Position numbers and translations under genes: made by a program
Shown here: positions 1,697 through 53,517 of the stretch, piece after piece
Position numbering within the stretch: the stretch's first letter is position 1
Layout of the letters: every line of letters starts with the position of its first letter
Notes under the pieces: generated by a model
What the model was told of the DNA's origin: nothing
The model's database searches: none
What the model saw: the letters and a program-made list of their open reading frames with translations, nothing else
Source: Gammaproteobacteria bacterium
Lineage (GTDB): Bacteria; Pseudomonadota; Gammaproteobacteria; JAJDOJ01
DNA: 64,000 nt
Direction: 5' to 3'
NCBI GenBank assembly: GCA_026984215.1
Contig: JALSSO010000081.1
Span: forward strand, 16,657-80,656

Positions 1697-4372
1697 TCAG
1701 GCGTACAGCGGGTTGATCTTCTCGGCGTCGATGCCATAGCGGGCGATGGCCTCGGCCACCCGCTCACGCCCGATGGCCCCGTCGCGCGCCAGGGCGTGCA
1801 GGGCGGCCACGGCGACGTAATACCGGTTCACCTCGAAGTGGCGGCGCAGATTGGCGCGGGTATCCGAGCGGCCGAACCCGTCGGTGCCCAGCACCACATA
1901 GGTGCCCGGGATCCAGGCCCGCACCTGGTCGGCATAGTTCTTCATGTAATCGGTCGCCGCCACGAACGGCCCCCGCACCCCTTCCAGCACCGTCTCCAGG
2001 TACCCCTTGCGCGGCTCGGCTTCGGGATGCAGCAGGTTCCAGCGCTCCGCGTCCAGGGCGTCGCGCTTGAGCTCGTTGAAGCTGGTCACGCTCCAGATGT
2101 CGGCATCCACGTTCCAGTCCTCGCGCAGGAGATCCGCCGCGGCGATCACCTCGCGCAGGATGGCGCCACTGCCCATGAGTTGCACGCGCAGCTTGCGCCG
2201 CCCCCCTTTCCGGAAGCGGTAGATCCCCCGCAGGATGCCTTCCTCCACGCCCTTGGGCATGGGCGGCTGGGGGTAGTTCTCGTTCATGGCGGTGACGTAG
2301 TAGAAGACGTTTTCCTGGTCCACGTACATGCGTCGCATGCCGTCGTGGACGATCACCGCCAGCTCGTAGGCGAAGCCGGGGTCGTAACTCACACAGTTGG
2401 GCACGGAGGCGGCGGTGATCAGGTTGTGCCCATCCTGGTGCTGCAGCCCCTCGCCGGCCAGGGTGGTGCGCCCGGCGGTACCGCCGATGAGAAAGCCACG
2501 GGCCTGCATGTCACCGGCGGCCCAGATCAGGTCCCCCACCCGCTGGAAGCCGAACATGGAATAGAAGATGTAGAAGGGGATCATGTTGACCCCGTGGGTG
2601 CTGTAGGCGGTCGCCGCCGCGATCCAGGACGACATGGCGCCGGCCTCGGTGATGCCCTCTTCCAGGATCTGACCCCGCTTGTCCTCGCGATAGTACATGA
2701 CCTGGTCGCGGTCCTGAGGCTCGTAGAGCTGGCCCACCGAGGAATAGATACCCAGTTGGCGGAACAGCCCCTCCATGCCGAAGGTGCGCGCCTCGTCGGG
2801 CACGATGGGCACCACGTGCCGCCCGATGTTCTTGTCGCGGGTGAGCAGGGTGAGCAGGCGCACGAAGGCCATGGTGGTGGACATCTCGCGCTCCCCGCTG
2901 CCCTCGAGCAAGGGCCGGAACGTCTCCAGGGGTGGGATCTCCAGCGGGGTGCCGAGCACCTGACGCACCGGCAAGAAGCCCCCCAGCTTCTCGCGCCGGG
3001 ACTTGAGGTAGCGGATCTCCTCGCTGTCTTCGGGCGGGCGGTAGTATTTGGCCTCGGCCACCTCCTCGTCGCTGAGCGGCAGGTTGTAGCGATCCCGGAA
3101 GCGCTTCATGTCTTCCAGATCCATCTTCTTCTGGCTGTGCGTGCCCATGCGCGCCTCCCCGCTGGCGCCCATGCCGTAGCCCTTGACCGTCTTGGCCAGG
3201 ATCACCGTCGGCTGGCCCTGGTGTTTGAGGGCCGCCGCATAGGCGGCATACACCTTGTGTGGGTCGTGGCCGCCGCGGTTGAGCCGCCAGATGTCCTCGT
3301 CGGACATGGTGGCCACCATGTCCAGCAGCTCCGGGTATTTACCGAAGAAGTGCTTGCGCACGTAGGCGCCGTCCTTGGCCTTGTAGTTCTGGTAGTCGCC
3401 GTCGACCGCCTCCTCCATGCGCCGGCGCAGCAGGCCCTTGGTGTCACGGGCCAGCAGCGGATCCCAGTACCCGCCCCAGATGACCTTGATCACGTTCCAG
3501 CCGGCGCCACGGAAGATGGCCTCCAGCTCCTGGATGATCTTGCCGTTGCCGCGCACGGGCCCGTCCAGGCGCTGCAGATTGCAGTTGATCACCCAGGTGA
3601 GGTTGTCCAGGCGCTCGCGGGCAGCCAGCGAGATGGAGCCCAGGGTCTCCGGCTCGTCCACCTCGCCGTCGCCGATGATGGCCCACACGTGGCGGTCGCG
3701 TGTGTTGGCCAGGCCGCGGTCGTGCATGTAGCGCAGGAAACGGGCCTGGTAGATGCTCATGATGGGCCCGAGCCCCATGGACACCGTGGGAAACTGCCAG
3801 AAATGGGGCATGAGCCACGGGTGCGGGTAGGAGGACAACCCCTTGCCGTCCACCTCCTGGCGGAAATGATCGAGCTGCTCCTCGCTCAGGCGCCCCTCCA
3901 GAAAGGCGCGGGCATAGATGCCCGGCGAGGAGTGGCCCTGGAAATAGACCAGATCCCCCCCGTGCTCGTGGGACGGCGCCCGCCAGAAGTGGTTGAAACC
4001 CACGTCGTAGAGGGTGGCCGAAGAGGCGAAGGTGGCGATGTGCCCGCCGAGCTCCGAAGACTCGCGATTGGCCCGCACCACCATGGCCATGGCGTTCCAG
4101 CGGATGTAGGACCGGATGCGCCGCTCCATGGCGGGATCGGCATCGGGCGGCATCTTCTCCTGCAGGTGCGGGGGGATGGTGTTCACGTAGGCCGTGGTGG
4201 CCTTGTAGGGGAGATTGACGCCGGAGCGGCGCGCCTGGTCGATGAGCTGCTCGAGCAGATAGTGGGCCCGTCGCCCCCCTTCCTGCTCGATGACGGCCTC
4301 CAGGGCCTCGATCCATTCCCGGGTCTCCTCGGGATCGGGGTCGTGTTGCAGCAGGTCCGCTTCAGTATTCAT
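1697..4372 (-). CDS. aceE: Pyruvate dehydrogenase E1 component (homodimeric type, about 890 aa)
   Basis: ORF 1697..4882(-). The internal start MNTEADLLQHDPDPEETREWIEALEAV matches the AceE N-terminus; ATG verified at 4372-4370. Full-length similarity to E. coli-type E1. Confidence 0.9.
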   Translation of the reverse strand: MNTEADLLQHDPDPEETREWIEALEAVIEQEGGRRAHYLLEQLIDQARRSGVNLPYKATTAYVNTIPPHLQEKMPPDADPAMERRIRSYIRWNAMAMVVRANRESSELGGHIATFASSATLYDVGFNHFWRAPSHEHGGDLVYFQGHSSPGIYARAFLEGRLSEEQLDHFRQEVDGKGLSSYPHPWLMPHFWQFPTVSMGLGPIMSIYQARFLRYMHDRGLANTRDRHVWAIIGDGEVDEPETLGSISLAARERLDNLTWVINCNLQRLDGPVRGNGKIIQELEAIFRGAGWNVIKVIWGGYWDPLLARDTKGLLRRRMEEAVDGDYQNYKAKDGAYVRKHFFGKYPELLDMVATMSDEDIWRLNRGGHDPHKVYAAYAAALKHQGQPTVILAKTVKGYGMGASGEARMGTHSQKKMDLEDMKRFRDRYNLPLSDEEVAEAKYYRPPEDSEEIRYLKSRREKLGGFLPVRQVLGTPLEIPPLETFRPLLEGSGEREMSTTMAFVRLLTLLTRDKNIGRHVVPIVPDEARTFGMEGLFRQLGIYSSVGQLYEPQDRDQVMYYREDKRGQILEEGITEAGAMSSWIAAATAYSTHGVNMIPFYIFYSMFGFQRVGDLIWAAGDMQARGFLIGGTAGRTTLAGEGLQHQDGHNLITAASVPNCVSYDPGFAYELAVIVHDGMRRMYVDQENVFYYVTAMNENYPQPPMPKGVEEGILRGIYRFRKGGRRKLRVQLMGSGAILREVIAAADLLREDWNVDADIWSVTSFNELKRDALDAERWNLLHPEAEPRKGYLETVLEGVRGPFVAATDYMKNYADQVRAWIPGTYVVLGTDGFGRSDTRANLRRHFEVNRYYVAVAALHALARDGAIGRERVAEAIARYGIDAEKINPLYA

Positions 4373-6319: not shown

Positions 6320-6463
6320 TAGCAGGCCGTTGAAAAACGGCTGCGAAACCCGCCTGCGGCGTTGCGCGCTGCTCGCTCCCTCGCCTATCTCCTTGATATG
6401 TCTCGGTCGCTGCGCTGCGCGCGCCTTGCATCCGGGCTTCTCGCGACGTTTTTCAACACCCTG
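6320..6463 (+). repeat. MITE/REP-like mini inverted-repeat element, copy A. About 144 bp, with terminal inverted repeats GTTGAAAAACG...CGTTTTTCAAC. It abuts the dnaQ stop codon
   Basis: 143 of 144 nt identical to the reverse complement of 14213-14356. The 11-bp perfect terminal inverted repeats and internal dyad symmetry were seen directly in the sequence. Confidence 0.7.
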
Positions 6464-7204
6464 TTAGGTCGCCGGCCCGGACTCCAGCCTGCGCCACACA
6501 CACGCACCGCCGCTGGCCGTATCGATCTCGTCGAGTCGCGCCGCATGCGCCCGACGTTCGTCGTCGTCCGCCCGCACCACCCGCAGGCGCGGGCGGTCAG
6601 GCGGCAGCGGCCGGATCTGCTCCGAACCCGCCCCCAGCGGGTCACCCGCCAGGCTGAGCGCCACCTGTCCGCCGGTCATGGCGAGATAGACTTCGGCCAG
6701 GATGCGGGCGTCGAGTAGCGCGCCGTGCAGGTCCCGTTGGGAGTTGTCGACCCCGTAGCGCTTGCACAGGGCGTCCAGCGAGTTGCGCTGGCCCGGGTGC
6801 CGGCGCCGAGCCAGCGCCAGGGTGTCCACGATGGGACACAAGCGGTCGATGGGGGGGAGATCCCGTTCGAGTCGCGACAGCTCGGCGTTGATGAATCCCA
6901 CGTCGAAGGGGGCGTTGTGAATGATCAGCTCGGCCCCGTCCACGTAGTCCAGGAACTCGTCGACGATGTCGGCGAAACGCGGCTTGTCGGCCAGGAACGC
7001 ATTGCTGATCCCATGCACCGCCTCGGCGCCTTCTTCGATCTCCCGGTCGGGCCGCAAATAGTGGTGGAAATCACGACCGGTGACCCGCCGGTCCAACAGT
7101 TCCACACAGCCGATCTCGATGATTTGATGGCCTTGCTCCACTTCCAGGCCCGTGGTCTCGGTGTCCAGCACGATCTGTCTACGCATGCCTGCGTGCTCCT
7201 CCAC
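6464..7204 (-). CDS. dnaQ: DNA polymerase III epsilon subunit (3'-5' proofreading exonuclease)
   Basis: [10 protein letters not shown]...[12 protein letters not shown]...[14 protein letters not shown] exonuclease I-III motifs. Synteny with rnhA. The start may be the downstream Met at 7186. Confidence 0.85.
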
Positions 7205-14200: not shown

Positions 14201-14212
14201 GGGGCTCCCTAT

Positions 14213-14356
14213 CAGGGTGTTGAAAAACGTCGCGAGAAGCCCGGATGCAAGGCGCGCGCAGCGCAGCGACCGAGACATATCAAGGAGATAGGCGAGGGAG
14301 CGAGCAGCGCGCAACGCCGCAGGCGGGTTTCGCAGCAGTTTTTCAACGGCCTGCTA
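14213..14356 (-). repeat. MITE/REP-like element, copy B, in inverted orientation relative to copy A. Sits 12 bp after the gph stop
   Basis: The reverse complement is 143/144 identical to 6320-6463, with the same terminal inverted repeats. Confidence 0.7.
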
Positions 14357-16641: not shown

Positions 16642-17034
16642 TCAACCCTCCCGGCTGCGCACCACGCGCAGCGCCCGCAGCAGGCGTGACGGGGCGCGGG
16701 ACCCCTGCCGGCGCGGGGCCATGCTCACGCGCAGCACGAGCGGGTGGGCACTGACGCGCAGCGCATCCGGCTCACGCCCGAGGTGGAGGCGCGTCCAGAG
16801 ACTTGCATGTCCGCTGCCGGGGGTAGCCCCGTTCTCGTCGGCCAGCACCTCGTGCAACGCCTCGATCAGGGCTGGAACGGTCACTGGACCCTGGACACGC
16901 GCACGCGCCCTCTGGATGAGCCGCGAACGCGCCGCCGCGCGGATGCCGAGCGCCGCCAGATACGTGTCGGCCCGCACGAAGGCTGCCTCCGGGCATCTCT
17001 CGCGGGAAGGTCGCTGAACCCGACTCGCTTTCAT
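16642..17034 (-). CDS. Hypothetical 130-aa protein translationally coupled (ATGA) to the opgG stop, lying in the 400-bp opgG-opgH spacer
   Basis: The ATG at 17034 overlaps the opgG TGA. GC3-rich codon usage over the central part (LIEALHEVLADENGA...). No recognisable domain; could be a GC-rich artefact. Confidence 0.3.
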   Translation of the reverse strand: MKASRVQRPSRERCPEAAFVRADTYLAALGIRAAARSRLIQRARARVQGPVTVPALIEALHEVLADENGATPGSGHASLWTRLHLGREPDALRVSAHPLVLRVSMAPRRQGSRAPSRLLRALRVVRSREG

Positions 17035-18545
17035 TCTTTCCCGGCCTCCAGGTAATAAGACCAGGTCTCGGAAACCGCCTCGTCGTCGTGCCGCAGATAG
17101 GCGCGCAGTTCGACGGGCCCCCGCTCCCGCGGGCGGATCGTGAACGAGACCCTCCACCCTCCAGCCACGTCGTTGCGCGTGGCGGCGACATCCAGGACTT
17201 GGGCATTGGCGCTGCTCGAAACGACGGGGACGGGACGCGCCTCCGCGCCCAGTGCGTCCAGCGCCGGACCCTGGAAGTCCAGCACGAAATGGGTGGCGCC
17301 CTTCGGCAGCCCTTCGCCCACCCAGGTGTGCACCACGCGCGCATTGGCATCGGGGCTGACGGGACCCCCGTGCCACTCGATCCGATACGCATAATCCAGG
17401 CTCTCACCGGGCTTCACCGGCTTGCCCGTGGTCCAATACAGGACGACGTTGTCGTTGTATTCGTTGCGGGTCGGTATTTCCACGAGCTTCAGGTGCCCCT
17501 GCCCCCACGGCCCTTCCGGAATGACCCATGCCGAAGGCCGGAGTTCCATACGGGTCTCCAGATCCTGGTAACTCCCGAAGTCTCGATCGCGCTGCAACAG
17601 CCCGAATCCCCGTGGATCCGTGGTATCGAACAGGGCCACGCGCAGCCGCTTCCCGTTGACCAGCGGCCGCCAGAGCCGCTCACCGGCCCCGTCGACGAAC
17701 AGGAAACCGTCGGAGTCGTGCACTTCGGGCCGCCACTGGCCCGGCGGGCGGGCCGTGTTTTCGCCGTAGAAAAACATGCTGGTCAAGGGCGCGATGCCGA
17801 GCTCGCGAATCTCCTTGCGCGGGCACAGACGGAGTTTCACGTCCACCCGTGTCGGATCCCCGGGCACCACCGTGAACCGATAGGCCCCGGTCACGCTGGG
17901 GCTGTCCAGCAGCGCGAATATGCGGATGTGCCGGGCGTCCTGCGGTGGGCGCTCGATCCAGAACTCACGGAAAAACGGGAATTCCTCGCCGCTGTCCAGC
18001 GCCGTATCGATGGCCAGACCCCGGGCCGAGAGCCCGTAGCGTCCCCCTTTGGGCACGGCGCGGAAGTAACTGGCCCCCAGGAAGGAGATCACCTCGTCCT
18101 GGACCTGAGACCCGTTCAATGGGTAGTAGACGCGGAATCCGGCGTAGCCGAGGTCCGGGGGAATGCGGCTGCGCAGATGGCCCGCCCGTGGACCGTAATC
18201 GAAGCAGTCGGCGGAGAACGGAACGTCACGTACCTTCCCGCCGTCCAGGGCATGTATCCGCACCGTGGTCTCGTACATCATGCCCGGATGGAAGAATTGC
18301 ACGCCGAACCGGAAACCGGGGGCCCGCCACAGCGTGCATTCGGGACGGTAGCGGATGTCCCGTAACGTGTCGTAGTCGATCTCGCGCAGGAATTTCGGTA
18401 CCTTCGGCGGCGGCCGATACGGTTCCGCAGCGAGCACCGCGGCCTGGGTGGCCAGTTCCTCGAATCCGAAGGCCCATACGGGGCCGCCCCCGGCCGCCAG
18501 GCAGAAAATGCCCAGCGCAATGCCGGCAGAAAACTGAACGCGCAT
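17031..18545 (-). CDS. opgG: Glucans biosynthesis protein G (periplasmic)
   Basis: 504 aa with an N-terminal signal peptide. MdoG/OpgG family similarity throughout (FFHPGMMYETTV...YWTTGKPV...). Confidence 0.9.
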   Translation of the reverse strand: MRVQFSAGIALGIFCLAAGGGPVWAFGFEELATQAAVLAAEPYRPPPKVPKFLREIDYDTLRDIRYRPECTLWRAPGFRFGVQFFHPGMMYETTVRIHALDGGKVRDVPFSADCFDYGPRAGHLRSRIPPDLGYAGFRVYYPLNGSQVQDEVISFLGASYFRAVPKGGRYGLSARGLAIDTALDSGEEFPFFREFWIERPPQDARHIRIFALLDSPSVTGAYRFTVVPGDPTRVDVKLRLCPRKEIRELGIAPLTSMFFYGENTARPPGQWRPEVHDSDGFLFVDGAGERLWRPLVNGKRLRVALFDTTDPRGFGLLQRDRDFGSYQDLETRMELRPSAWVIPEGPWGQGHLKLVEIPTRNEYNDNVVLYWTTGKPVKPGESLDYAYRIEWHGGPVSPDANARVVHTWVGEGLPKGATHFVLDFQGPALDALGAEARPVPVVSSSANAQVLDVAATRNDVAGGWRVSFTIRPRERGPVELRAYLRHDDEAVSETWSYYLEAGKE

Positions 18546-18600
18546 GCAAGACCCGCTTTCCGAACGAAGCAGCAGATGGTTTTTTAGTATCTCAAAATAC

Positions 18601-18621
18601 GCTGATCAATGGAAAACCGAC
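18601..18621 (-). terminator. Putative intrinsic terminator downstream of merA (short stem CCGAC/GTCGG followed by a TTTTCC tract on the minus strand)
   Basis: Hairpin plus U-tract 30 bp after the merA stop. It lies inside an unusually AT-rich patch (18560-18605). Confidence 0.4.
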
Positions 18622-18652
18622 CGTTCGTCGGAACACGCGCCGCCTGTCCGGG

Positions 18653-20290
18653 TCACCCGGCGCAGCAGGACAACTGGCCGACATCCTTGCGGAAGGTCTG
18701 CGCGCAGAGCTTGAGCCCCTCGACCAGGGTCAGGTAGGGAAAGAGCCGTCCGGCCAGCTCGTCCACGGTCATGCCGGCACCGATGGCCAGGGCCGCGCTC
18801 TGGATCACCTCCCCCGCACCGGCTGCCAGCACCTGAGCGCCGAGCAGCCGCCCGTGGCGCGCGTCGGCCACCAGCTTGATGAACCCGCGGGTGTCGAAGT
18901 TGGCCAGGGCCCGGGGAACCTGCCCCAGGTCCAGGATCCGGGCCTCCGCCTCCAGGCCCCGCTGGCGCGCCTGCGTCTCGGTCAGCCCCACGCTGGCCAC
19001 CGCCGGGTCCGTGAACGTCACGGTGGGCAGCACGGAGAGGTCCAGGCGCGCATCGCCGCCCGTGAGATTGACGGCGGCCCGCGTGCCCGCCGCGGCGGCC
19101 ACGTAGACGTATTGGGGCAGCTCGGTGCAGTCGCCGGCGGCGTAGATGTGAGAAACCGAGGTGCGCAGATGGTCATCGACGAGGATCGCACCCTGGACAT
19201 CGGTCTCGACACCGATGCGTTCCAGACCCAGCCCGGCGGTGTTGGGCGTGCGCCCGGTGGCCACCAGCAGCCGGTCGCCTTCGATCACACCGTGCCGGGT
19301 CTCCAGGACAAAACCGCCGACCCCGTGCCTGACGGCGGTGGGTACGGTGTCGCAAAGCACGCGGATCCCCTCGGCCTCGAAGGCGGCGCGCAGCCCCGCC
19401 CCCAGGGCTGGATCCTCTCGCGAGAGCAGGCGGCTGCGCGCGAGGATCGTCACCGCCGCGCCGAGCCGCCGGAAGGCCTGGCCCAGCTCCACGGCCACCA
19501 CCGAGCCGCCCAGAATCACCAAATGCTCCGGGACCGTCTCCGCCGCCAAGGCCTCGGTGGAGGTCCAGAACGGCGTGTCGGCGAGTCCCGGAATCTCAGG
19601 AACGGCCGGCCGCGCGCCGGTGGCGATCAGCACGCCCTCGGCTCGAACCTCGGTCTCGGTCCCGTCCGCGTGGCGCACGAGCAGCCTGTGGGGGGTCGCG
19701 AAACGAGCCCGGCCCCGCAGCAGCCGGATGGTCTCCCGACCCTCCAGGAGGGCCTCGTACTTGACGTGGCGCAGCTCGGCGACCCGCGCCTGCTGCTGGC
19801 GCAGCTGGGCGGCCCGGTCGACGGCGGGCACGCAATGGGCCAACCCTTCGAACGGATGCCGAGCCTGCAGATGGGCGATCTCCGCCAGGCGGATGAGAAT
19901 CTTCGAGGGCACACAACCCACGTTCACGCAGGTCCCGCCCAGCACCGGGGCGGCCTCCACGAGCGTTACCTGCGCGCCACGCGAGGCGGCCTCCAGCGCC
20001 GCCGCGAAGGCCGCCGAGCCACCGCCCACGATGGCGATCCGGGTCGCGGGGCCGCCGGCCATCGACTCGGACCGCGGGCGTTCCTCCAGCAGTCGCGCTC
20101 GGTAGCCGCTCTCCGCCACGGCTCGTACCAGGGCCTCCGGCGACACCCCCTGATCCACCTCCACCCGCGCCGTGGCGCTGGCGAAATCCACATGCGCCCG
20201 CACCCCCGGCACGGCGTTCAGGGCCGCCTCGACGCTGCGCGCGCAGTGCTCGCAGGTCATGCCCGTGATCCGCAGCGACCTGCGGTTCAT
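18653..20290 (-). CDS. merA: Mercuric reductase with an N-terminal HMA (NmerA) domain
   Basis: The start MNRRSLRITGMTCEHC (GMTCxxC heavy-metal-associated motif), the redox-active GTCVNVGCVPSK and the C-terminal vicinal cysteines ...QLSCCAG are all diagnostic of MerA. ATG at 20290 overlaps the merT stop. Confidence 0.9.
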   Translation of the reverse strand: MNRRSLRITGMTCEHCARSVEAALNAVPGVRAHVDFASATARVEVDQGVSPEALVRAVAESGYRARLLEERPRSESMAGGPATRIAIVGGGSAAFAAALEAASRGAQVTLVEAAPVLGGTCVNVGCVPSKILIRLAEIAHLQARHPFEGLAHCVPAVDRAAQLRQQQARVAELRHVKYEALLEGRETIRLLRGRARFATPHRLLVRHADGTETEVRAEGVLIATGARPAVPEIPGLADTPFWTSTEALAAETVPEHLVILGGSVVAVELGQAFRRLGAAVTILARSRLLSREDPALGAGLRAAFEAEGIRVLCDTVPTAVRHGVGGFVLETRHGVIEGDRLLVATGRTPNTAGLGLERIGVETDVQGAILVDDHLRTSVSHIYAAGDCTELPQYVYVAAAAGTRAAVNLTGGDARLDLSVLPTVTFTDPAVASVGLTETQARQRGLEAEARILDLGQVPRALANFDTRGFIKLVADARHGRLLGAQVLAAGAGEVIQSAALAIGAGMTVDELAGRLFPYLTLVEGLKLCAQTFRKDVGQLSCCAG

Positions 20291-20643
20291 GGCAGGAACA
20301 ACGTGCCGTAGTAAGGGAAGGCCACCAGCATCACAGCCACCAGCGCCACGCCCCAGAACACCCGACGCGCCCGGCGCCGGGCCGGCGAGACGGCGCATGC
20401 ACCCTGCGTCCCGCAAACGGCCGGCACCCGGTACAACCGCCAGCCGGCCAGCCCGAGCAGCGCCGCGGTGAGGCCGATGAACACCGGCCGGTACGGCGCC
20501 AGTGCCGTGACCGCGCTCATCCAGGCCCCGCCAAGCCCGAGCGTTGCAAGTACGAACGGCCCGAGGCAGCAGGCCGAGGCGCCCAAGGCGGTGAGCAGGG
20601 CGGCGGCCAGGCCAGGCGCGTTGCCAGGTTCTACATCCGGCAT
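20287..20643 (-). CDS. merT: Mercuric ion transport protein MerT
   Basis: 119 aa from MPDVEPGNAPGLAAALLTALGASACCLGPFVLATLGLGGAW. It has the TM1 CC pair and a second Cys pair (CGTQGAC), matching Tn501/Tn21 MerT topology. Confidence 0.85.
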   Translation of the reverse strand: MPDVEPGNAPGLAAALLTALGASACCLGPFVLATLGLGGAWMSAVTALAPYRPVFIGLTAALLGLAGWRLYRVPAVCGTQGACAVSPARRRARRVFWGVALVAVMLVAFPYYGTLFLP

Positions 20644-20694
20644 GAAGACAGCTCCGCACGCAAGTGCATGATCGAACCACACCGGATTGTGCGG

Positions 20695-20717
20695 TCCGTA
20701 CCGAGGTACGGAGTCAA
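20695..20717 (-). promoter_or_regulatory. MerR-type operator/promoter: perfect dyad TCCGTAC-N4-GTACGGA abutting a TTGACT -35, with the 19-bp spacer characteristic of Pmer
   Basis: On the merT-coding strand the sequence reads cTTGACTCCGTACCTCGGTACGGACCgcacaat. Tn21/Tn501 Pmer reads TTGACTCCGTACATGAGTACGGAAGTAAGGT. Located 52-75 bp upstream of the merT ATG. Confidence 0.65.
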
Positions 20718-20778
20718 GGCCCGCGCCGTCGCACGGACGGGCGGGCGACGCCCCCCTGGCGCACCCCCACGGCGGGGC

Positions 20779-22074
20779 TCAAAACGACAGGAACAGCCCG
20801 TAGCCCATGGTGAGCACGCCCAGCAGGACCAGACCGAGGAAGGCCGTGCGCTGGACGCGCCAACCACCGATGGTGACCGCGTAGATCGCCTTGAGGAAGT
20901 TGTTGCTGCCGGCGGCGATGAACAGGGCACCGGCCAGGCTGTGCATGCCCGCGGCGCGGTAGTGCCCGTTGAGCAGGGACAGCACGAAGGGGTCGATGTC
21001 CGTGAACCCCACCACGAAGGACAGGGCCTGGAGGCCGGCGTTGCCGAACCGGTGCAGCACCGCGTCGGTGAGCACCAGCATCACGATGAACAGCACTGCG
21101 AACAGGGCGGCGGTACCCAATTCCAGGGGGTTGTGCCCGGCGGCCTCGTCGCGCGTCTCCCGGGACGCCTGCCCCGCGCGGGCGCGTAACACGCCGTAAC
21201 CGATGGCCGCCAGGCCGAACATCGTGAACGGCACCGCCGTGGCGGGAAAGAAGTCGCGGTTCAACAGGAGCACCAGGGCGAGCAGGCGCAGATACATCAT
21301 CCCCGAGGCCGCGATGGTGGCGGCGGCCAGGGGAGCCCGCGCGCCGGGCTCCACGCGGCTGCGCCGGGCCAGCACGATGGTGGTGGCGGTGCTCGAATAC
21401 AGGCCGCCCAACAGACCCGTGACCAAGTAACCCTGCCGGGGAAACAGATAGCGCTGGAGGATGTATCCGAGATAGGAAATGCCCGAGATGGCCACCACCG
21501 CCACCCAGATCTTGTAGGGCGTGGCGGGCAGCCATTCGGCCACCGGCCGGTCGGGCATCAGGGGGAGGATCACCGCGGCCAGCAGGAGGAACTTGGCCAG
21601 GGTGACCAGCTCCCCCGGCGCGATGCGTTCGCTCAACCGATGCGTGAACGGCCGGGCGTTGAGCACGAACACCACCGCCACGAACAGCAACACGAGAAAC
21701 CACGGGGGCAGCAAGGTGGCGCTGGGACCGTAGGTATACACCACCAGAGCGATCAAAGGCTGCAGGATGCCCGTCTGCCCCGCACGGAGCTTCTGGTGAT
21801 AGAACAGCAAATAGAAGAGCACCACCGCGGCCATGCCCCCCAGATACAGCCGCCAGGCGGGGTCCAGGGCGTGGAGGACGAAGCCCAACAGGGCGATGAA
21901 GGTCAAGGTGCGTGCACTGCCGGCCTTGACGTGCGAGCCCTCGGCGTGATCGGCGTTCTTCGACAGCAGGTACTCGCGCATCTCCAGCCCGGTGAGAAAG
22001 CCGAACAGCCCCACCAGGAGGAAGCGCGCCCAGAGCGCGGAGAGCAATGGTGCGAACTGGGCGCCCTCAGCCAT
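20779..22074 (-). CDS. MgtC-N-terminal plus DUF4010-family integral membrane protein
   Basis: 431 aa, about 10 TM segments. Has the MgtC/SapB-like N-terminus followed by the DUF4010 architecture. Confidence 0.65.
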   Translation of the reverse strand: MAEGAQFAPLLSALWARFLLVGLFGFLTGLEMREYLLSKNADHAEGSHVKAGSARTLTFIALLGFVLHALDPAWRLYLGGMAAVVLFYLLFYHQKLRAGQTGILQPLIALVVYTYGPSATLLPPWFLVLLFVAVVFVLNARPFTHRLSERIAPGELVTLAKFLLLAAVILPLMPDRPVAEWLPATPYKIWVAVVAISGISYLGYILQRYLFPRQGYLVTGLLGGLYSSTATTIVLARRSRVEPGARAPLAAATIAASGMMYLRLLALVLLLNRDFFPATAVPFTMFGLAAIGYGVLRARAGQASRETRDEAAGHNPLELGTAALFAVLFIVMLVLTDAVLHRFGNAGLQALSFVVGFTDIDPFVLSLLNGHYRAAGMHSLAGALFIAAGSNNFLKAIYAVTIGGWRVQRTAFLGLVLLGVLTMGYGLFLSF

Positions 22075-22207: not shown

Positions 22208-22984
22208 TCACGGCCGCCCGCCTGCCCAGCCATCGCATCCGAAGAGACGACGCCGTCCCGCGCCGGCCAGGGCCAGCACCGCAAGCGCCCACACGATCGC
22301 CGGGCCGGAGGGCAGATCGAGGGCCGCGGACACCGCTAGACCCACCGCATAGCCCAGCGCCCCGATCAGGTACCCGCGGACCAGCGCCGTCGGCGGATCC
22401 AGCCCCCGCACCGCCAGTGCGGGTAGGATCAGGGTCGCGAATACGAGGTACACGCCCACGAGCTGGACCGAGGCGGTCACCGCCACGGCGAATACGAGAT
22501 AGAAGACCACCCCTGCCGGGCGCAGCGCGTGGACGAGGAGCAGCCCTGCGTACAGTACCGCCACCACGGCCAACTGGCGCCAACCCACCCACAGGATCTG
22601 TCCCGCCAGCAGGGCCTTGATCTGCTCCCCGCCATGGGGGTGATCGGCCACCGCGAGCAGGCTGGCGGTGACGGTGAGCACGAAGGCCACGCCGATGAGC
22701 GCCTCTTGGATCTGTGGCCAGCACCGCTCGAGTCCGTGGAGGATGGCGGCGCCGATCAACGCACTGGCCCCGGCGGCGAGCTGCACCTGCCAGTCCCCGC
22801 CGTGGAACCCCAATGCCTCGGCGGCGATGACGCCGAGACCGGCCATCTGGGCCGCGGCCAGGTCTCTGAAAATGATCCCGCGGGCGAGCACCTGGCGTCC
22901 CAGCGGTAGGTGCGTGGACAGCACCAGTAGTCCCGCCGCGAAGGCCGGGAGCAACACCCCCAGATCGAAGGCACCCCAGTTCAC
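22208..22984 (-). CDS. ABC-3 family metal (Zn/Mn/Fe) transporter permease (ZnuB/MntB-like)
   Basis: Membrane protein with the ABC-3 signature (...ALIGAAILHGLER...). GTG start at 22984 (VNWGAFDLGVLLP), overlapping the upstream SBP remnant. No cognate ATPase gene anywhere nearby. Confidence 0.7.
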   Translation of the reverse strand: MNWGAFDLGVLLPAFAAGLLVLSTHLPLGRQVLARGIIFRDLAAAQMAGLGVIAAEALGFHGGDWQVQLAAGASALIGAAILHGLERCWPQIQEALIGVAFVLTVTASLLAVADHPHGGEQIKALLAGQILWVGWRQLAVVAVLYAGLLLVHALRPAGVVFYLVFAVAVTASVQLVGVYLVFATLILPALAVRGLDPPTALVRGYLIGALGYAVGLAVSAALDLPSGPAIVWALAVLALAGAGRRRLFGCDGWAGGRP

Positions 22985-23698
22985 TGCAGGGCCTGGTGGA
23001 GCCGGGCCAGCGTCACATCGAACAATCCATAAAGGTCGTCCGCGCCCGGGGCCCCGCCCACGGTGAAGGGCAACACGGCCACGGGGATGCCGGTCTGCTC
23101 CGAGAGCCACTGTGCCGGCCGCAGGTCCATGTAGGCGGCCCGGAGGATCACGCGGGCGGGCTCGCGCGCCAGGCGCTGTTTCAATGCAGCCAGATGGCCG
23201 GGCGTGGGTGGGATTCCCGGCTTGGGCTCGAGCTCACCCACGCGCTTCAGGCCCAACCAGTCCTCGAGATACACCCACTGATCGTGGTGGACCACGATCG
23301 GCAGGCCACGCAGATCGGCCCCCTGGCGGCTCCAGCGCCCGGCGCCAGTCGGCCTCGAACCGTTTCCAGCGGGCCGCGTAGTCCTCGGCGTGTCCTGGAT
23401 CCAGTCGGCCAAGCCGCCGCGCCAACGCCTCGGCGATCTTCAACAGCCGTCGCGGATCGAGATGCACATGGGGATTGCCCTGTGGATGGATGTCTCCTTC
23501 GGCGCGGCTCAGACGCTTCGGGATCTCGAGCAGACGCACCTGCCGGGCCGCCAGGAAATGGCCCGGCGCGCCCGGCTGAACGGGGAAGACGCCGCGCAAC
23601 GACTGCGGCCCGATGAACGTGCTTTGTGGTATATCAACCCAAAAGGCGAGGCGGCGGCCGGCTTGCACGGCGCCAAACGGAGGGGAAGATGCCGACAA
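22981..23698 (-). pseudogene. Remnant of a TroA/ZnuA-family periplasmic metal-binding protein: 5'-truncated, with a +1 frameshift in a C5 homopolymer (23319-23323)
   Basis: Two overlapping frames (ORFs 23234..23698 and 22981..23412) together give GNPHVHLDP...YAARWKRFEADWRRALEPPG|ADLRGLPIVVHHDQWVYLEDWLGL...IPVAVLPFTVGG, which is a ZnuA-like sequence. Removing one C restores the frame. The N-terminal roughly 100 aa and the signal peptide are absent; the region is occupied by ppk2 on the other strand. Confidence 0.55.
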
Positions 23699-33023: not shown

Positions 33024-34418
33024 TTGCGAATCCGTTTTCACGGCGCCGACCGGGAGGTGACGGGGTCCTGTCACCTGGTGGAATGCGCGGGCAAACGCAT
33101 CCTGATCGACTGCGGCCTGTATCAGGGCGGCGGCGAGCTGGACGAGATCAACCGCCGGCCGTTCGGCTTCGATCCGGCCTCGATCGATGTGCTGCTCCTG
33201 ACGCACGCCCACCTGGACCACTGTGGCCGCATTCCCCTGCTGGTGGCCGAAGGGTTTCGCGGCGAGATCATCACCACCTCGGCCACCCGGGAGCTGAGCC
33301 GCCTGGTGTTGCTCGACGCGGCCCACCTGCAGGAGGAGGAGGCCGAGCGCAAGGCGCGGCATGCGGCACGCCACAGGGGGCGGCGCGTGCGAGTGGAACC
33401 CCTGTACACCACGCTGGACGCCCTCAACAGCCTGGACTTCTTCGGGCGCGTGGCCGAGTACGGGCGACCGCTGGAGCTGGGTGCCGGCATCCGCGCCAGC
33501 TTTCACGATGCGGGCCACATCCTCGGCTCGGCCAGCGTGCTCCTGACGCTCGAGGAAGGCGGCCGCCGGCGGCGCGTGCTGTTCTCCGGAGACATCGGAT
33601 ACGGCGGCCGACCCATCCTGCGCGATCCGCAGCCGCCCTCCGAGGTCGATGTGCTGGTCATGGAGACCACGTACGGCGACCGGCGCCACAAGGCCCTGCA
33701 ACCCTCGCTGGAGGAACTCTACGGCGCGATCGAGACGACCCTCCAGGGGGGCGGTAACGTCGTGATCCCGACGTTTGCGCTGGAGCGGGCCCAGGAGGTG
33801 CTCTTCTACCTGCGCGAGGCCGTGGAAAGCGGGCGCCTGCCGCGTGCCCTGCAGGTATTCCTGGACTCACCCATGGCCATCTCCGCCACCGAGATCTTCC
33901 GCCGTCACCCGGAATGCTACGACGCCCAGACCGCGGAACTGTTTCGCAACGGCAGGGACCCTTTCGCACTGCCCAACCTGCACTTCACGCGCGAGGCCGC
34001 CCAGTCCATGGCCCTGAATCACATCCACGCCGGGGCGGTGATCATGGCCGGCTCCGGGATGTGTACCGGCGGGCGGGTGCGCCATCACCTGAAGCACAAT
34101 CTGTGGCGGGACGAGTGCAGCGTCGTCTTCGTCGGCTACGCCGCGCACGGCACCCTAGCGCGCATCATCATCGACGGGGCCAAAAAGGTGAAACTCTTCG
34201 GCGAGGAGATCCCCGTGCGCGCCCGCATCCACACCATCGGAGGCTTCTCCGCGCACGCCGACGCCCGGGAACTGATGCACTGGCTGGAGGCCGTGGGCCG
34301 GCCGAAGCGCATCTTCCTGGTCCACGGGGAAGAACACGCCATGGGCGCGTTCGCGCGCCACCTCCACCACGCACGGGTCTCCATGCCGAGACTCGGGGAG
34401 ACCTTCGAGATCGACTGA
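33024..34418 (+). CDS. MBL-fold metallo-hydrolase of the beta-CASP RNA-metabolising family (RNase J/CPSF-like)
   Basis: HxHxDH metallo-beta-lactamase motif (LLLTHAHLDHCGRIPLL), beta-CASP motifs (...VMETTYGDRRH..., ...IGGFSAHAD...) and an RMMBL C-terminus. Confidence 0.8.
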   Translation: MRIRFHGADREVTGSCHLVECAGKRILIDCGLYQGGGELDEINRRPFGFDPASIDVLLLTHAHLDHCGRIPLLVAEGFRGEIITTSATRELSRLVLLDAAHLQEEEAERKARHAARHRGRRVRVEPLYTTLDALNSLDFFGRVAEYGRPLELGAGIRASFHDAGHILGSASVLLTLEEGGRRRRVLFSGDIGYGGRPILRDPQPPSEVDVLVMETTYGDRRHKALQPSLEELYGAIETTLQGGGNVVIPTFALERAQEVLFYLREAVESGRLPRALQVFLDSPMAISATEIFRRHPECYDAQTAELFRNGRDPFALPNLHFTREAAQSMALNHIHAGAVIMAGSGMCTGGRVRHHLKHNLWRDECSVVFVGYAAHGTLARIIIDGAKKVKLFGEEIPVRARIHTIGGFSAHADARELMHWLEAVGRPKRIFLVHGEEHAMGAFARHLHHARVSMPRLGETFEID

Positions 34419-49981: not shown

Positions 49982-50013
49982 CGGTTTACCTCCAGACGTG
50001 GTCGGGACGGACG

Positions 50014-50361
50014 TTACTTCTTCATGCCGCCGCACTTGCCCTCGCCGCACTTGCCCTCACCCTTCTTGTCAGGCTTGGCTGCCTTGTCCATGTTGCCGCA
50101 TTTGCCCTCGCCTTTCTTGTCGGACTTGGCCCCCTTGTCCATGTTGCCGCATTTGCCCTCGGCATCCTTCATCTGTTTTTCCATCATGCCGCCGCACTTG
50201 CCCTCGCCATCCTTGCCGGCCACCATGTAACCATCGGCCAGACGCGTCATGCCGAAGGGGTTTTCCGTGGCGCCAGCACCACCCATGGCAAGGGTGGAGG
50301 CCAGCGCGATGCCGGCGGCGGTGACCGTGGCGGTCTTGGCACAGGTCTTCTTACTCATCAT
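50014..50361 (-). CDS. Small secreted Cys/Gly/Lys/Met-rich repeat protein: Sec signal peptide followed by five EGKCG motifs inside about 17-aa tandem repeats (KKGEGKCGNMDKAAKPD...)
   Basis: MMSKKTCAKTATVTAAGIALASTLAMGGAGA|TENPF...GEGKCGGMMEKQMKDAEGKCGNMDKGAKSDKKGEGKCGNMDKAAKPDKKGEGKCGEGKCGGMKK. The DNA contains near-perfect 51-bp tandem repeats. Strong RBS ggagagaggag. Its own terminator lies downstream. Confidence 0.65.
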   Translation of the reverse strand: MMSKKTCAKTATVTAAGIALASTLAMGGAGATENPFGMTRLADGYMVAGKDGEGKCGGMMEKQMKDAEGKCGNMDKGAKSDKKGEGKCGNMDKAAKPDKKGEGKCGEGKCGGMKK

Positions 50362-53094: not shown

Positions 53095-53517
53095 TCAGCC
53101 CACCAGGAGTTTGACGAGGGCCACCACCAGCGCCCCGGTTCCCAGCGTGATGCTGACCGACCAGCGCATGAAGCGATCCATGCGACGGTTGAGTTCCAGC
53201 AGTTGGGTTTCGATGGATTCAAAACGCTTGTCCCCCTGCTCGAAGCGCTTGTCGATTTGCTCGAAACGCTTCTCCACCTGCTCGAAACGCTTGTCGATTT
53301 GTTCGAAACGCTTCTCCACCTGCTCGAAACGCTTCTCCATGAGCCGGAAGCCCTGTTCCATGAGCTCCCGCTGGTGCTTGAGCTCCTCCTCCACCCGCAC
53401 CAGGCGCTCACGCAGCTCGAGCTCGTAGACGGCTGGCGGCTTGCCCAGCGACTGCTCGGCCAACCACTCGCCCAGGTGCGCCTTGATGAATTCGATGTCT
53501 TCCCGGCTGAGCGCCAC
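53095..53517 (-). CDS. Tail-anchored coiled-coil protein with six tandem heptads ([M/V/I/G][E/D]KRFE[Q/S]) and a C-terminal TM helix
   Basis: GTG start at 53517. ...MEKRFEQVEKRFEQIDKRFEQVEKRFEQIDKRFEQGDKRFESIETQL...RWSVSITLGTGALVVALVKLLVG. The DNA shows 42-bp direct repeats at 53200-53340. Confidence 0.55.
   Translation of the reverse strand: MALSREDIEFIKAHLGEWLAEQSLGKPPAVYELELRERLVRVEEELKHQRELMEQGFRLMEKRFEQVEKRFEQIDKRFEQVEKRFEQIDKRFEQGDKRFESIETQLLELNRRMDRFMRWSVSITLGTGALVVALVKLLVG

Follow-up and report, generated by a model that had tools for sequence, protein, structure and literature searches.

What controls a mercury-resistance operon that has an operator for the regulator MerR and no merR gene beside it? 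The question is raised by merT and merA, two adjacent genes on the minus strand of a 64-kb stretch of DNA (contig JALSSO010000081.1, positions 16,657 to 80,656; hereafter the window, numbered from its first nucleotide) from an uncultured Chromatiales-like gammaproteobacterium. On balance we think it probable that Hg(II) induces this operon by way of a genuine MerR that is encoded elsewhere in the genome and acts in trans.

The merTA genes and their promoter

The unit spans window positions 18653-20643. The merA gene (18653..20290, minus strand) encodes a mercuric reductase of 545 aa with an N-terminal NmerA (HMA) domain, and merT (20287..20643, minus strand) an inner-membrane Hg(II) transporter of 118 aa; a Shine-Dalgarno sequence, GGAG (20652..20655, minus strand), can be read directly 8 nt 5' of the merT ATG. 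MerA is placed in its family by two NCBIfam models (NF010311, 781.5 bits against a cutoff of 600; TIGR02053, 549.5 bits against 454.45), Pfam recognises the N-terminal HMA domain followed by Pyr_redox_2 and Pyr_redox_dim, and the motifs are complete: GMTCEHC of NmerA at residues 10-16, the redox-active CVNVGC at 121-126, and the C-terminal CC at 542-543. MerT scores 106.2 bits with Pfam PF02411, where the gathering cutoff is 32.9, and has the cysteine pairs of the first transmembrane segment (25/26) and of the cytoplasmic loop (77/83). Its 91.6 bits with NF010314, the Tn21-type equivalog model, fall below the cutoff of 150; by this measure it is a divergent MerT and not a Tn21-type equivalog.

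Stop codon of merT and start codon of merA share a 4-nt overlap, ATGA, through which the two genes are translationally coupled. An earlier note on this DNA had described a minimal merT-merA module with this overlap and a MerA bearing its own NmerA domain, and both descriptions hold, with the two genes intact and above the Pfam and NCBIfam family cutoffs. The same gene calls of 118 aa and 545 aa, with the same neighbours, are found in two independent metagenome assemblies (L001, 99.87% identical to the window over 9.9 kb; L002, 100% over 2.6 kb), and because the locus is identical in both, we regard it as stable in the population. Judged from its genes, the unit is a chromosomal operon for narrow-spectrum mercury detoxification, intact and pared down to two genes.

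The sigma-70 promoter upstream of merT begins with a -35 hexamer, TTGACT (20712..20717, minus strand; the same hexamer is seen in 22 of 25 aligned relatives), the last T of which is shared with a MerR-type operator, the perfect 7-4-7 dyad TCCGTAC-CTCG-GTACGGA (20695..20712). The dyad has a single match in the window, even at a tolerance of up to two mismatches (0.09 expected). In its -35 and in the two half-sites the promoter does not differ from the Tn501-type promoter of a related locus, L049, the MerR of which shares 99% identity with the Tn21 MerR used as a probe; the likeness to the Tn21/Tn501 promoter that had been pointed out earlier is therefore real. The 19-bp spacer claimed along with it was not recovered: at 19 nt the -10 would be GCACAA, with one match in six, and of the hexamers spaced 18-21 nt from the -35, CACAAT (20686..20691, minus strand) alone has both the essential A2 and T6; this putative -10 lies 20 nt 3' of the -35. 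When the window promoter was aligned with 25 mer promoters of related loci, a 20-nt spacer was found in 19 of the 26, most of the closest relatives included, with the Tn501-like ones at 19 nt. MerR-family promoters typically have a spacer of 19-20 bp and need activator-induced DNA distortion (PMC9909328); the arrangement here, a palindrome between -35 and -10 hexamers that are 20 nt apart, is of this kind. The geometry of operator and promoter fits both the Tn501-type and the clade-specific mer promoters, and a palindrome that is perfect at 14 of 14 positions and correctly placed argues for continued use.

Taken with these features, induction in trans would work as follows. The merTA promoter would be nearly silent alone, and an Hg(II)-loaded MerR dimer, encoded beyond the 64-kb window, would underwind and kink the spacer from its position on the dyad, realigning the -35 and -10 and thereby turning the promoter on. 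Members of the MerT family take up Hg(II) over the inner membrane, and in MerA the metal moves from NmerA to the C-terminal cysteine pair before it is reduced to Hg(0) at a redox site that depends on FAD and NADPH. By the same route, MerT would bring Hg(II) across the inner membrane, and the ion would be handed from NmerA to the C-terminal cysteine pair of MerA and reduced to volatile Hg(0). The absent merP may be dispensable, because MerT alone can import Hg(II) and MerA has its own metal-binding NmerA.

Regulation without a linked merR

The search for a linked regulator used probes for MerR, CueR, ZntR, MerP, MerC, MerD and MerE; all except those for CueR and ZntR were validated by 90-99% matches in Tn21-like loci. 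With the MerR, CueR and ZntR probes there was no tblastn match below E = 1 in the window, and for merP, merC, merD and merE nothing below E = 0.05. A MerR-family profile hidden Markov model (HMM), built from 81 sequences of related loci, was run with filters off on all 944 six-frame open reading frames (ORFs) 30 aa or longer and detected no MerR-family gene; its top match, to a TatA/B gene, had an E of 0.068. Nor did this six-frame search find a merR remnant or a mis-annotated small ORF near the promoter, the hidden gene against which the earlier note had guarded; the absence of merR, merP, merD and merE that it reported stands for the whole window. Since there is no linked merR, either a MerR in trans or basal expression is required, the same pair of options that had been offered before, in our judgement sensibly.

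The operon is thus both like and unlike the classical systems of Tn501 and Tn21, which are laid out as merR, divergent, and merT-merP-(merC)-merA-merD-(merE). It shares with them a MerT, a MerA with an NmerA domain and the full set of catalytic cysteines, the TTGACT hexamer, identical TCCGTAC/GTACGGA half-sites and an over-long spacer of the sort that is activated by DNA distortion. It differs in the lack of a divergent merR and of merP, merC, merD and merE in the window, in its spacer (20 nt against 19) and in its -10 (CACAAT against TAAGGT); its MerA protein is about 56-57% identical to theirs, and its DNA has no more than 69% identity with that of plasmid-borne operons. Repeats were searched for and 25 proteins scanned, and neither transposon ends nor a transposase was found around merTA, unlike in Tn501/Tn21. 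Of the features by which a transposon-borne operon of Tn21/Tn501 type is known (divergent merR, merP, merD and/or merE, terminal inverted repeats, transposition genes), the locus showed none.

The earlier note had assumed that a mer operon without a regulator beside it is unusual. We counted layouts in the 54 related mer loci that have 3 kb or more of upstream and 1 kb or more of downstream sequence, taking an Hg-type merR within 1.5 kb as linked: such a gene is present in 42 of the 54 and missing from 12, and nine of these 12 retain a CCGTAC-N4-GTACGG dyad before the first mer gene. Among loci with a MerA at least 58% identical to that of the window, eight of 20 have no linked merR. No MerR-family ORF was detected by HMM in the flanking DNA of ten of the 12, nor in that of L101, a further case of an operator without merR; positive controls were detected in the same search. 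Thiomonas delicata DSM 16361 has one copy of each kind, merR-linked (L030) and merR-less (L031), with the same operator. In a published survey, merR was near merA in 195/272 operons (71.7%), merT in 54% and merP in 49%, and from the values of 71.7% and 8.1% given there, about 20% of operons have neither merR nor arsR nearby (PMC3466566). The split layout is an ordinary one, common in related bacteria and with precedent since 1991.

Closest to the window are merR-less merT(-merP)-merA loci of Thiohalobacter, of Acidiferrobacteraceae, of Sedimenticola metagenome-assembled genomes and of Thiomonas delicata (L003, L013, L014, L017, L031, L101), with the nearest MerA (59-65% identical) and MerT (about 44-54%) sequences. 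They have the same promoter architecture, TTGAC(T/A) with CCGTAC-N4-GTACGG and a spacer that is mostly 20 nt long, and their flanks, up to 10 kb each, contain no MerR-family ORF. They differ from the window in retaining merP between merT and merA, where the window merT overlaps merA, and in their neighbouring genes, which are unrelated.

More distant precedents are of two kinds. The mer locus of Acidithiobacillus (Thiobacillus) ferrooxidans E-15 is said to have merC as its transporter, where the window has merT, and merR copies that were reportedly mapped by experiment; in the window, by comparison, no regulator was located within the 64 kb. As in the window, the E-15 structural genes are chromosomal, the host is a sulfur-oxidising proteobacterium and merR is spaced apart from the structural genes, according to Inoue et al. 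(1991) as entered in the reference list of PMC1142338. In Synechocystis sp. PCC 6803, going by the abstract of PMC6741143, the MerR-like Slr0701 and MerA are likewise encoded apart and MerA is Hg-inducible; unlike the window, this system, of a cyanobacterium, lacks merT, and that abstract describes no Tn501-like operator. The significance of the window locus is accordingly modest: a merP-less, merR-unlinked merTA operon of an uncultured gammaproteobacterium joins the documented split mer systems. The locus shows that an operator left in place is informative as a sign of trans regulation, and pipelines that demand merR beside merA miss such regulated operons, which are frequent in the closest lineages (the eight of 20 loci with adequate flanks).

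Several observations weigh against a MerR acting in trans. The regulator itself has not been seen, there being no MerR-family gene in the 64 kb; CACAAT is weak as a -10, with four matches in six; no convincing intrinsic terminator lies between merT and the co-directional DUF4010 gene upstream of it, so that read-through could contribute; and the exact 22-bp operator of the window (TTGACTCCGTACCTCGGTACGG, identical also in L101) stands in front of MerR-like and thioredoxin genes elsewhere, so that the dyad alone is no proof of a Hg(II)-sensing regulator. The first and third of these suit an orphaned promoter, for which a cognate MerR was lost or never co-acquired; merTA would then be expressed constitutively at a low level, from a poor promoter with a 20-nt spacer and/or by read-through across the 135-nt gap from DUF4010, and the resistance would be weak and not inducible. 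The roughly one fifth of surveyed mer operons with neither merR nor arsR nearby (PMC3466566) also agrees with this. An unused perfect palindrome with ideal -35 placement should decay, however, and the dyad has been kept in nine of 12 merR-less relatives from several lineages; merT and merA, too, are intact and score above family cutoffs. We consider an orphaned promoter unlikely.

Between the DUF4010 stop codon and the -35 there is a GC-rich hairpin (20719..20746, minus strand) of 11 bp with one bulge, a 5-nt loop and no U-tract, in the minimum-free-energy fold of 20683-20790. It is a possible but unproven insulator against read-through into merT. Neither intergenic region of the unit folds unusually as RNA (z = -0.95 for DUF4010-merT and -0.82 for the other), and there are no Rfam matches in the window.

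The exact 22-nt promoter/operator sequence occurs in 46 Joint Genome Institute (JGI) metagenome contigs (L093-L138; for example L098 1014-1835, L099, L110 and L123). In 32 of them a co-directional MerR-like gene, whose product is 38-60% identical to Tn21 MerR, lies 32-47 nt 3' of it, and in the four long high-GC contigs that were inspected this gene is followed by one for a thioredoxin (WCGPC), with no mer genes. A MerR-like gene is also found in L083 (1644-3378), the contig with the closest full-length OpgG relative (68% identical), where arsJ (593 bits) and then a gene of 148 aa immediately precede opgG, at the place where the window has merTA. This protein scores 132 bits with TIGR02051, against a cutoff of 150.85, and three of its cysteines align with Cys82, Cys117 and Cys126 of MerR. 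That it is a relic of a former mer locus was rejected: L083 contains no dyad resembling the operator beyond what chance would give, and it is arsJ that precedes the gene.

A second alternative to a MerR in trans draws on these contigs, namely that the protein on the dyad is a MerR-family paralogue of another regulon, for example one for thiol stress or metalloids, and that mer is co-induced with that regulon. It is favoured by the identical 22-mer at its short distance before MerR-like genes, by the thioredoxin gene next to these in the four long contigs and by the MerR-like gene after arsJ, beside opgG. Against it, no such paralogue lies within the window, the MerR-like proteins concerned could themselves sense Hg(II), and no characterised promoter of this sequence type in front of merT/merA is known to be served by anything other than Hg-MerR. 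Cross-regulation of this sort strikes us as quite improbable. Its stronger form, in which there is no dedicated Hg(II)-MerR and the operator is served by a regulator of the type linked to thioredoxin in the soil contigs or of the arsJ-linked type, we regard as very improbable; if it were true, mercury reduction would be wired into a broader thiol/metalloid stress response.

Gene neighbourhood and the boundary with opgG

The minus-strand order around the operon is a gene for a DUF4010 membrane protein (20779-22074), merT, merA, opgG (17031-18545), a small ORF and opgH. Pfam bears out the upstream, co-directional DUF4010 gene of the earlier note. The genes scanned between 1.7 and 41.7 kb are housekeeping ones, among them those for pyruvate dehydrogenase E1, RNase H, OpgGH, PPK2, an aldolase and a phosphoketolase. 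A functional link between DUF4010 and mer was rejected, as a DUF4010 gene is present in none of 80 MerA loci and no examined DUF4010 homologue precedes merT.

The earlier note had also taken merTA for a cassette inserted between opgG and DUF4010, and an AT-rich patch at its downstream end for a horizontally acquired junction that contains the terminator. The GC content of merTA, 72-73% against 66-67% in the two flanking genes, would agree with a recent and precise insertion of this kind, as would the slot upstream of opgG, which differs in every relative examined: arsJ with the MerR-like gene in L083, a gene for a beta-CASP protein in L084, and bolA in L085. The excess of GC stems from codon positions 1 and 2, however, and merA resembles the host in its codon usage: measured against the other 39 genes its bias B is 0.205, where the window median is 0.237, and its GC content at third codon positions, 0.89, is host-like too. 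The bias of merT is higher than that of merA, and a gene of about its length has a matching value. A search for direct or inverted repeats around merTA found none, no tRNA lies in the window, and none of the 25 proteins scanned (1.7-41.7 kb and 44.3-44.8 kb, which includes all genes adjacent to merTA) has an integrase or transposase domain. Within these scans, then, the atypical codons, flanking repeats, and integrase or tRNA of a recent islet or cassette were absent.

Recent transfer from known plasmids was rejected as well: the closest plasmid-borne mer DNA matches 68% of the query at 69% identity and no plasmid record covers at least 80% of it, and in 185,579 species genomes the top MerA match reaches about 65% identity. 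The earlier note had proposed comparing the opgG/DUF4010 junction in related genomes, and in that comparison both flanks stand in other contexts in every relative; the DUF4010 homologues examined occupy five other gene contexts, all with different neighbours, and no empty DUF4010|opgG site was found in any relative examined. With host-like codon usage, no flanking repeats and no empty-site comparator, an inserted cassette is unsupported.

Within the 107-nt gap between merA and opgG, the AT-rich patch (18560-18605) is real, with 41% GC and the lowest-GC 46-mer among the intergenic regions of the window. It is not a horizontally acquired junction. A 44-nt block (18583..18626, minus strand), which holds AGCGTATTTTGAGATACT and TGAGATACT, an extended -10-like element, aligns to the spacer between the beta-CASP gene and opgG in L084 (about 2984-3030) with a score of 40, against 15.2 +/- 2.1 for shuffled sequence (0/1000 shuffles reach it), and includes a stretch identical at 18 of 18 positions. 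L084 is a contig of a Chromatiales metagenome-assembled genome, the nearest relative found (OpgG 78% identical, beta-CASP 82%), and has no merA; because the block is conserved there, the AT-rich patch is the upstream region of opgG itself. The block is probably an opgG promoter or regulator site, to judge from this conservation, and mer-specific sequence ends where it begins, about 26 nt after the merA stop codon. Nor does the patch contain the terminator-like hairpin: this weak structure from a pattern scan, CCGAC-GAACG-GTCGG followed by TTTT (18613..18631, minus strand; hairpin 18617-18631), has a stem of only 5 bp, lies just outside the patch and has its 3' half already within the opgG-conserved block, and matches to such a pattern are no commoner than in shuffles (two found, 1.4 expected).

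The orthologue of this beta-CASP gene is present in the window. The beta-CASP/RMMBL hydrolase at 33024-34418 is 82% identical to the L084 protein (gene at 1489-2880) that is encoded directly before opgG; in the window 14.5 kb separate its gene from opgG, and the two are on different strands. This displacement and change of strand relative to L084 indicate that the intervening block was rearranged, and on this comparison the neighbourhood is a rearranged one. An inversion mediated by repeats 3' of the beta-CASP gene and of merA was rejected, their similarity in a MAFFT alignment not being significant. The position of the beta-CASP gene points to a rearrangement of a larger block and not to the insertion of 2 kb, and together with the opgG-derived AT-rich block, the missing repeats and mobility genes and the distance to plasmid mer DNA, it leaves us giving little credence to a recent cassette.

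Other features of the window

Directly upstream of DUF4010, at 22208-23412 (minus strand), there is an ABC-3 (ZnuB-like) permease gene and beside it only the C-terminal part of ZnuA (Pfam positions 153-261 of 263), with no ZnuC seen between this cluster and the divergent PPK2 gene; it looks like a decayed zinc-uptake cluster. The small ORF wedged between opgG and opgH (16642-17034, minus strand) overlaps both, is rich in arginine and has no Pfam match; counterparts in the same place make up a set of 127-130 aa from three lineages (the window, L083 4951-5343 and L085 11082-11465), with 30-39% identity and an invariant MAPR motif.

An element of 154 nt occurs twice in inverted orientation, at 6320-6473 and 14203-14356, the copies being 97% complementary; the copy that was read has terminal inverted repeats of its own, GTTGAAAAAC...GTTTTTCAAC. 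From its build it looks like a miniature inverted-repeat transposable element (MITE) or a repetitive extragenic palindromic (REP) element, and the second copy is the exact point at which L001, otherwise 99.87% identical, departs from the window. Two further ORFs on the minus strand contain repeats: a run of 21-nt tandem repeats at 53219-53386 within the coding ORF 53095-53517, and GCCGCACTTGCCCTCGCC-type units at 50013-50217 in the ORF 50014-50361, which suggest that both encode repetitive proteins.

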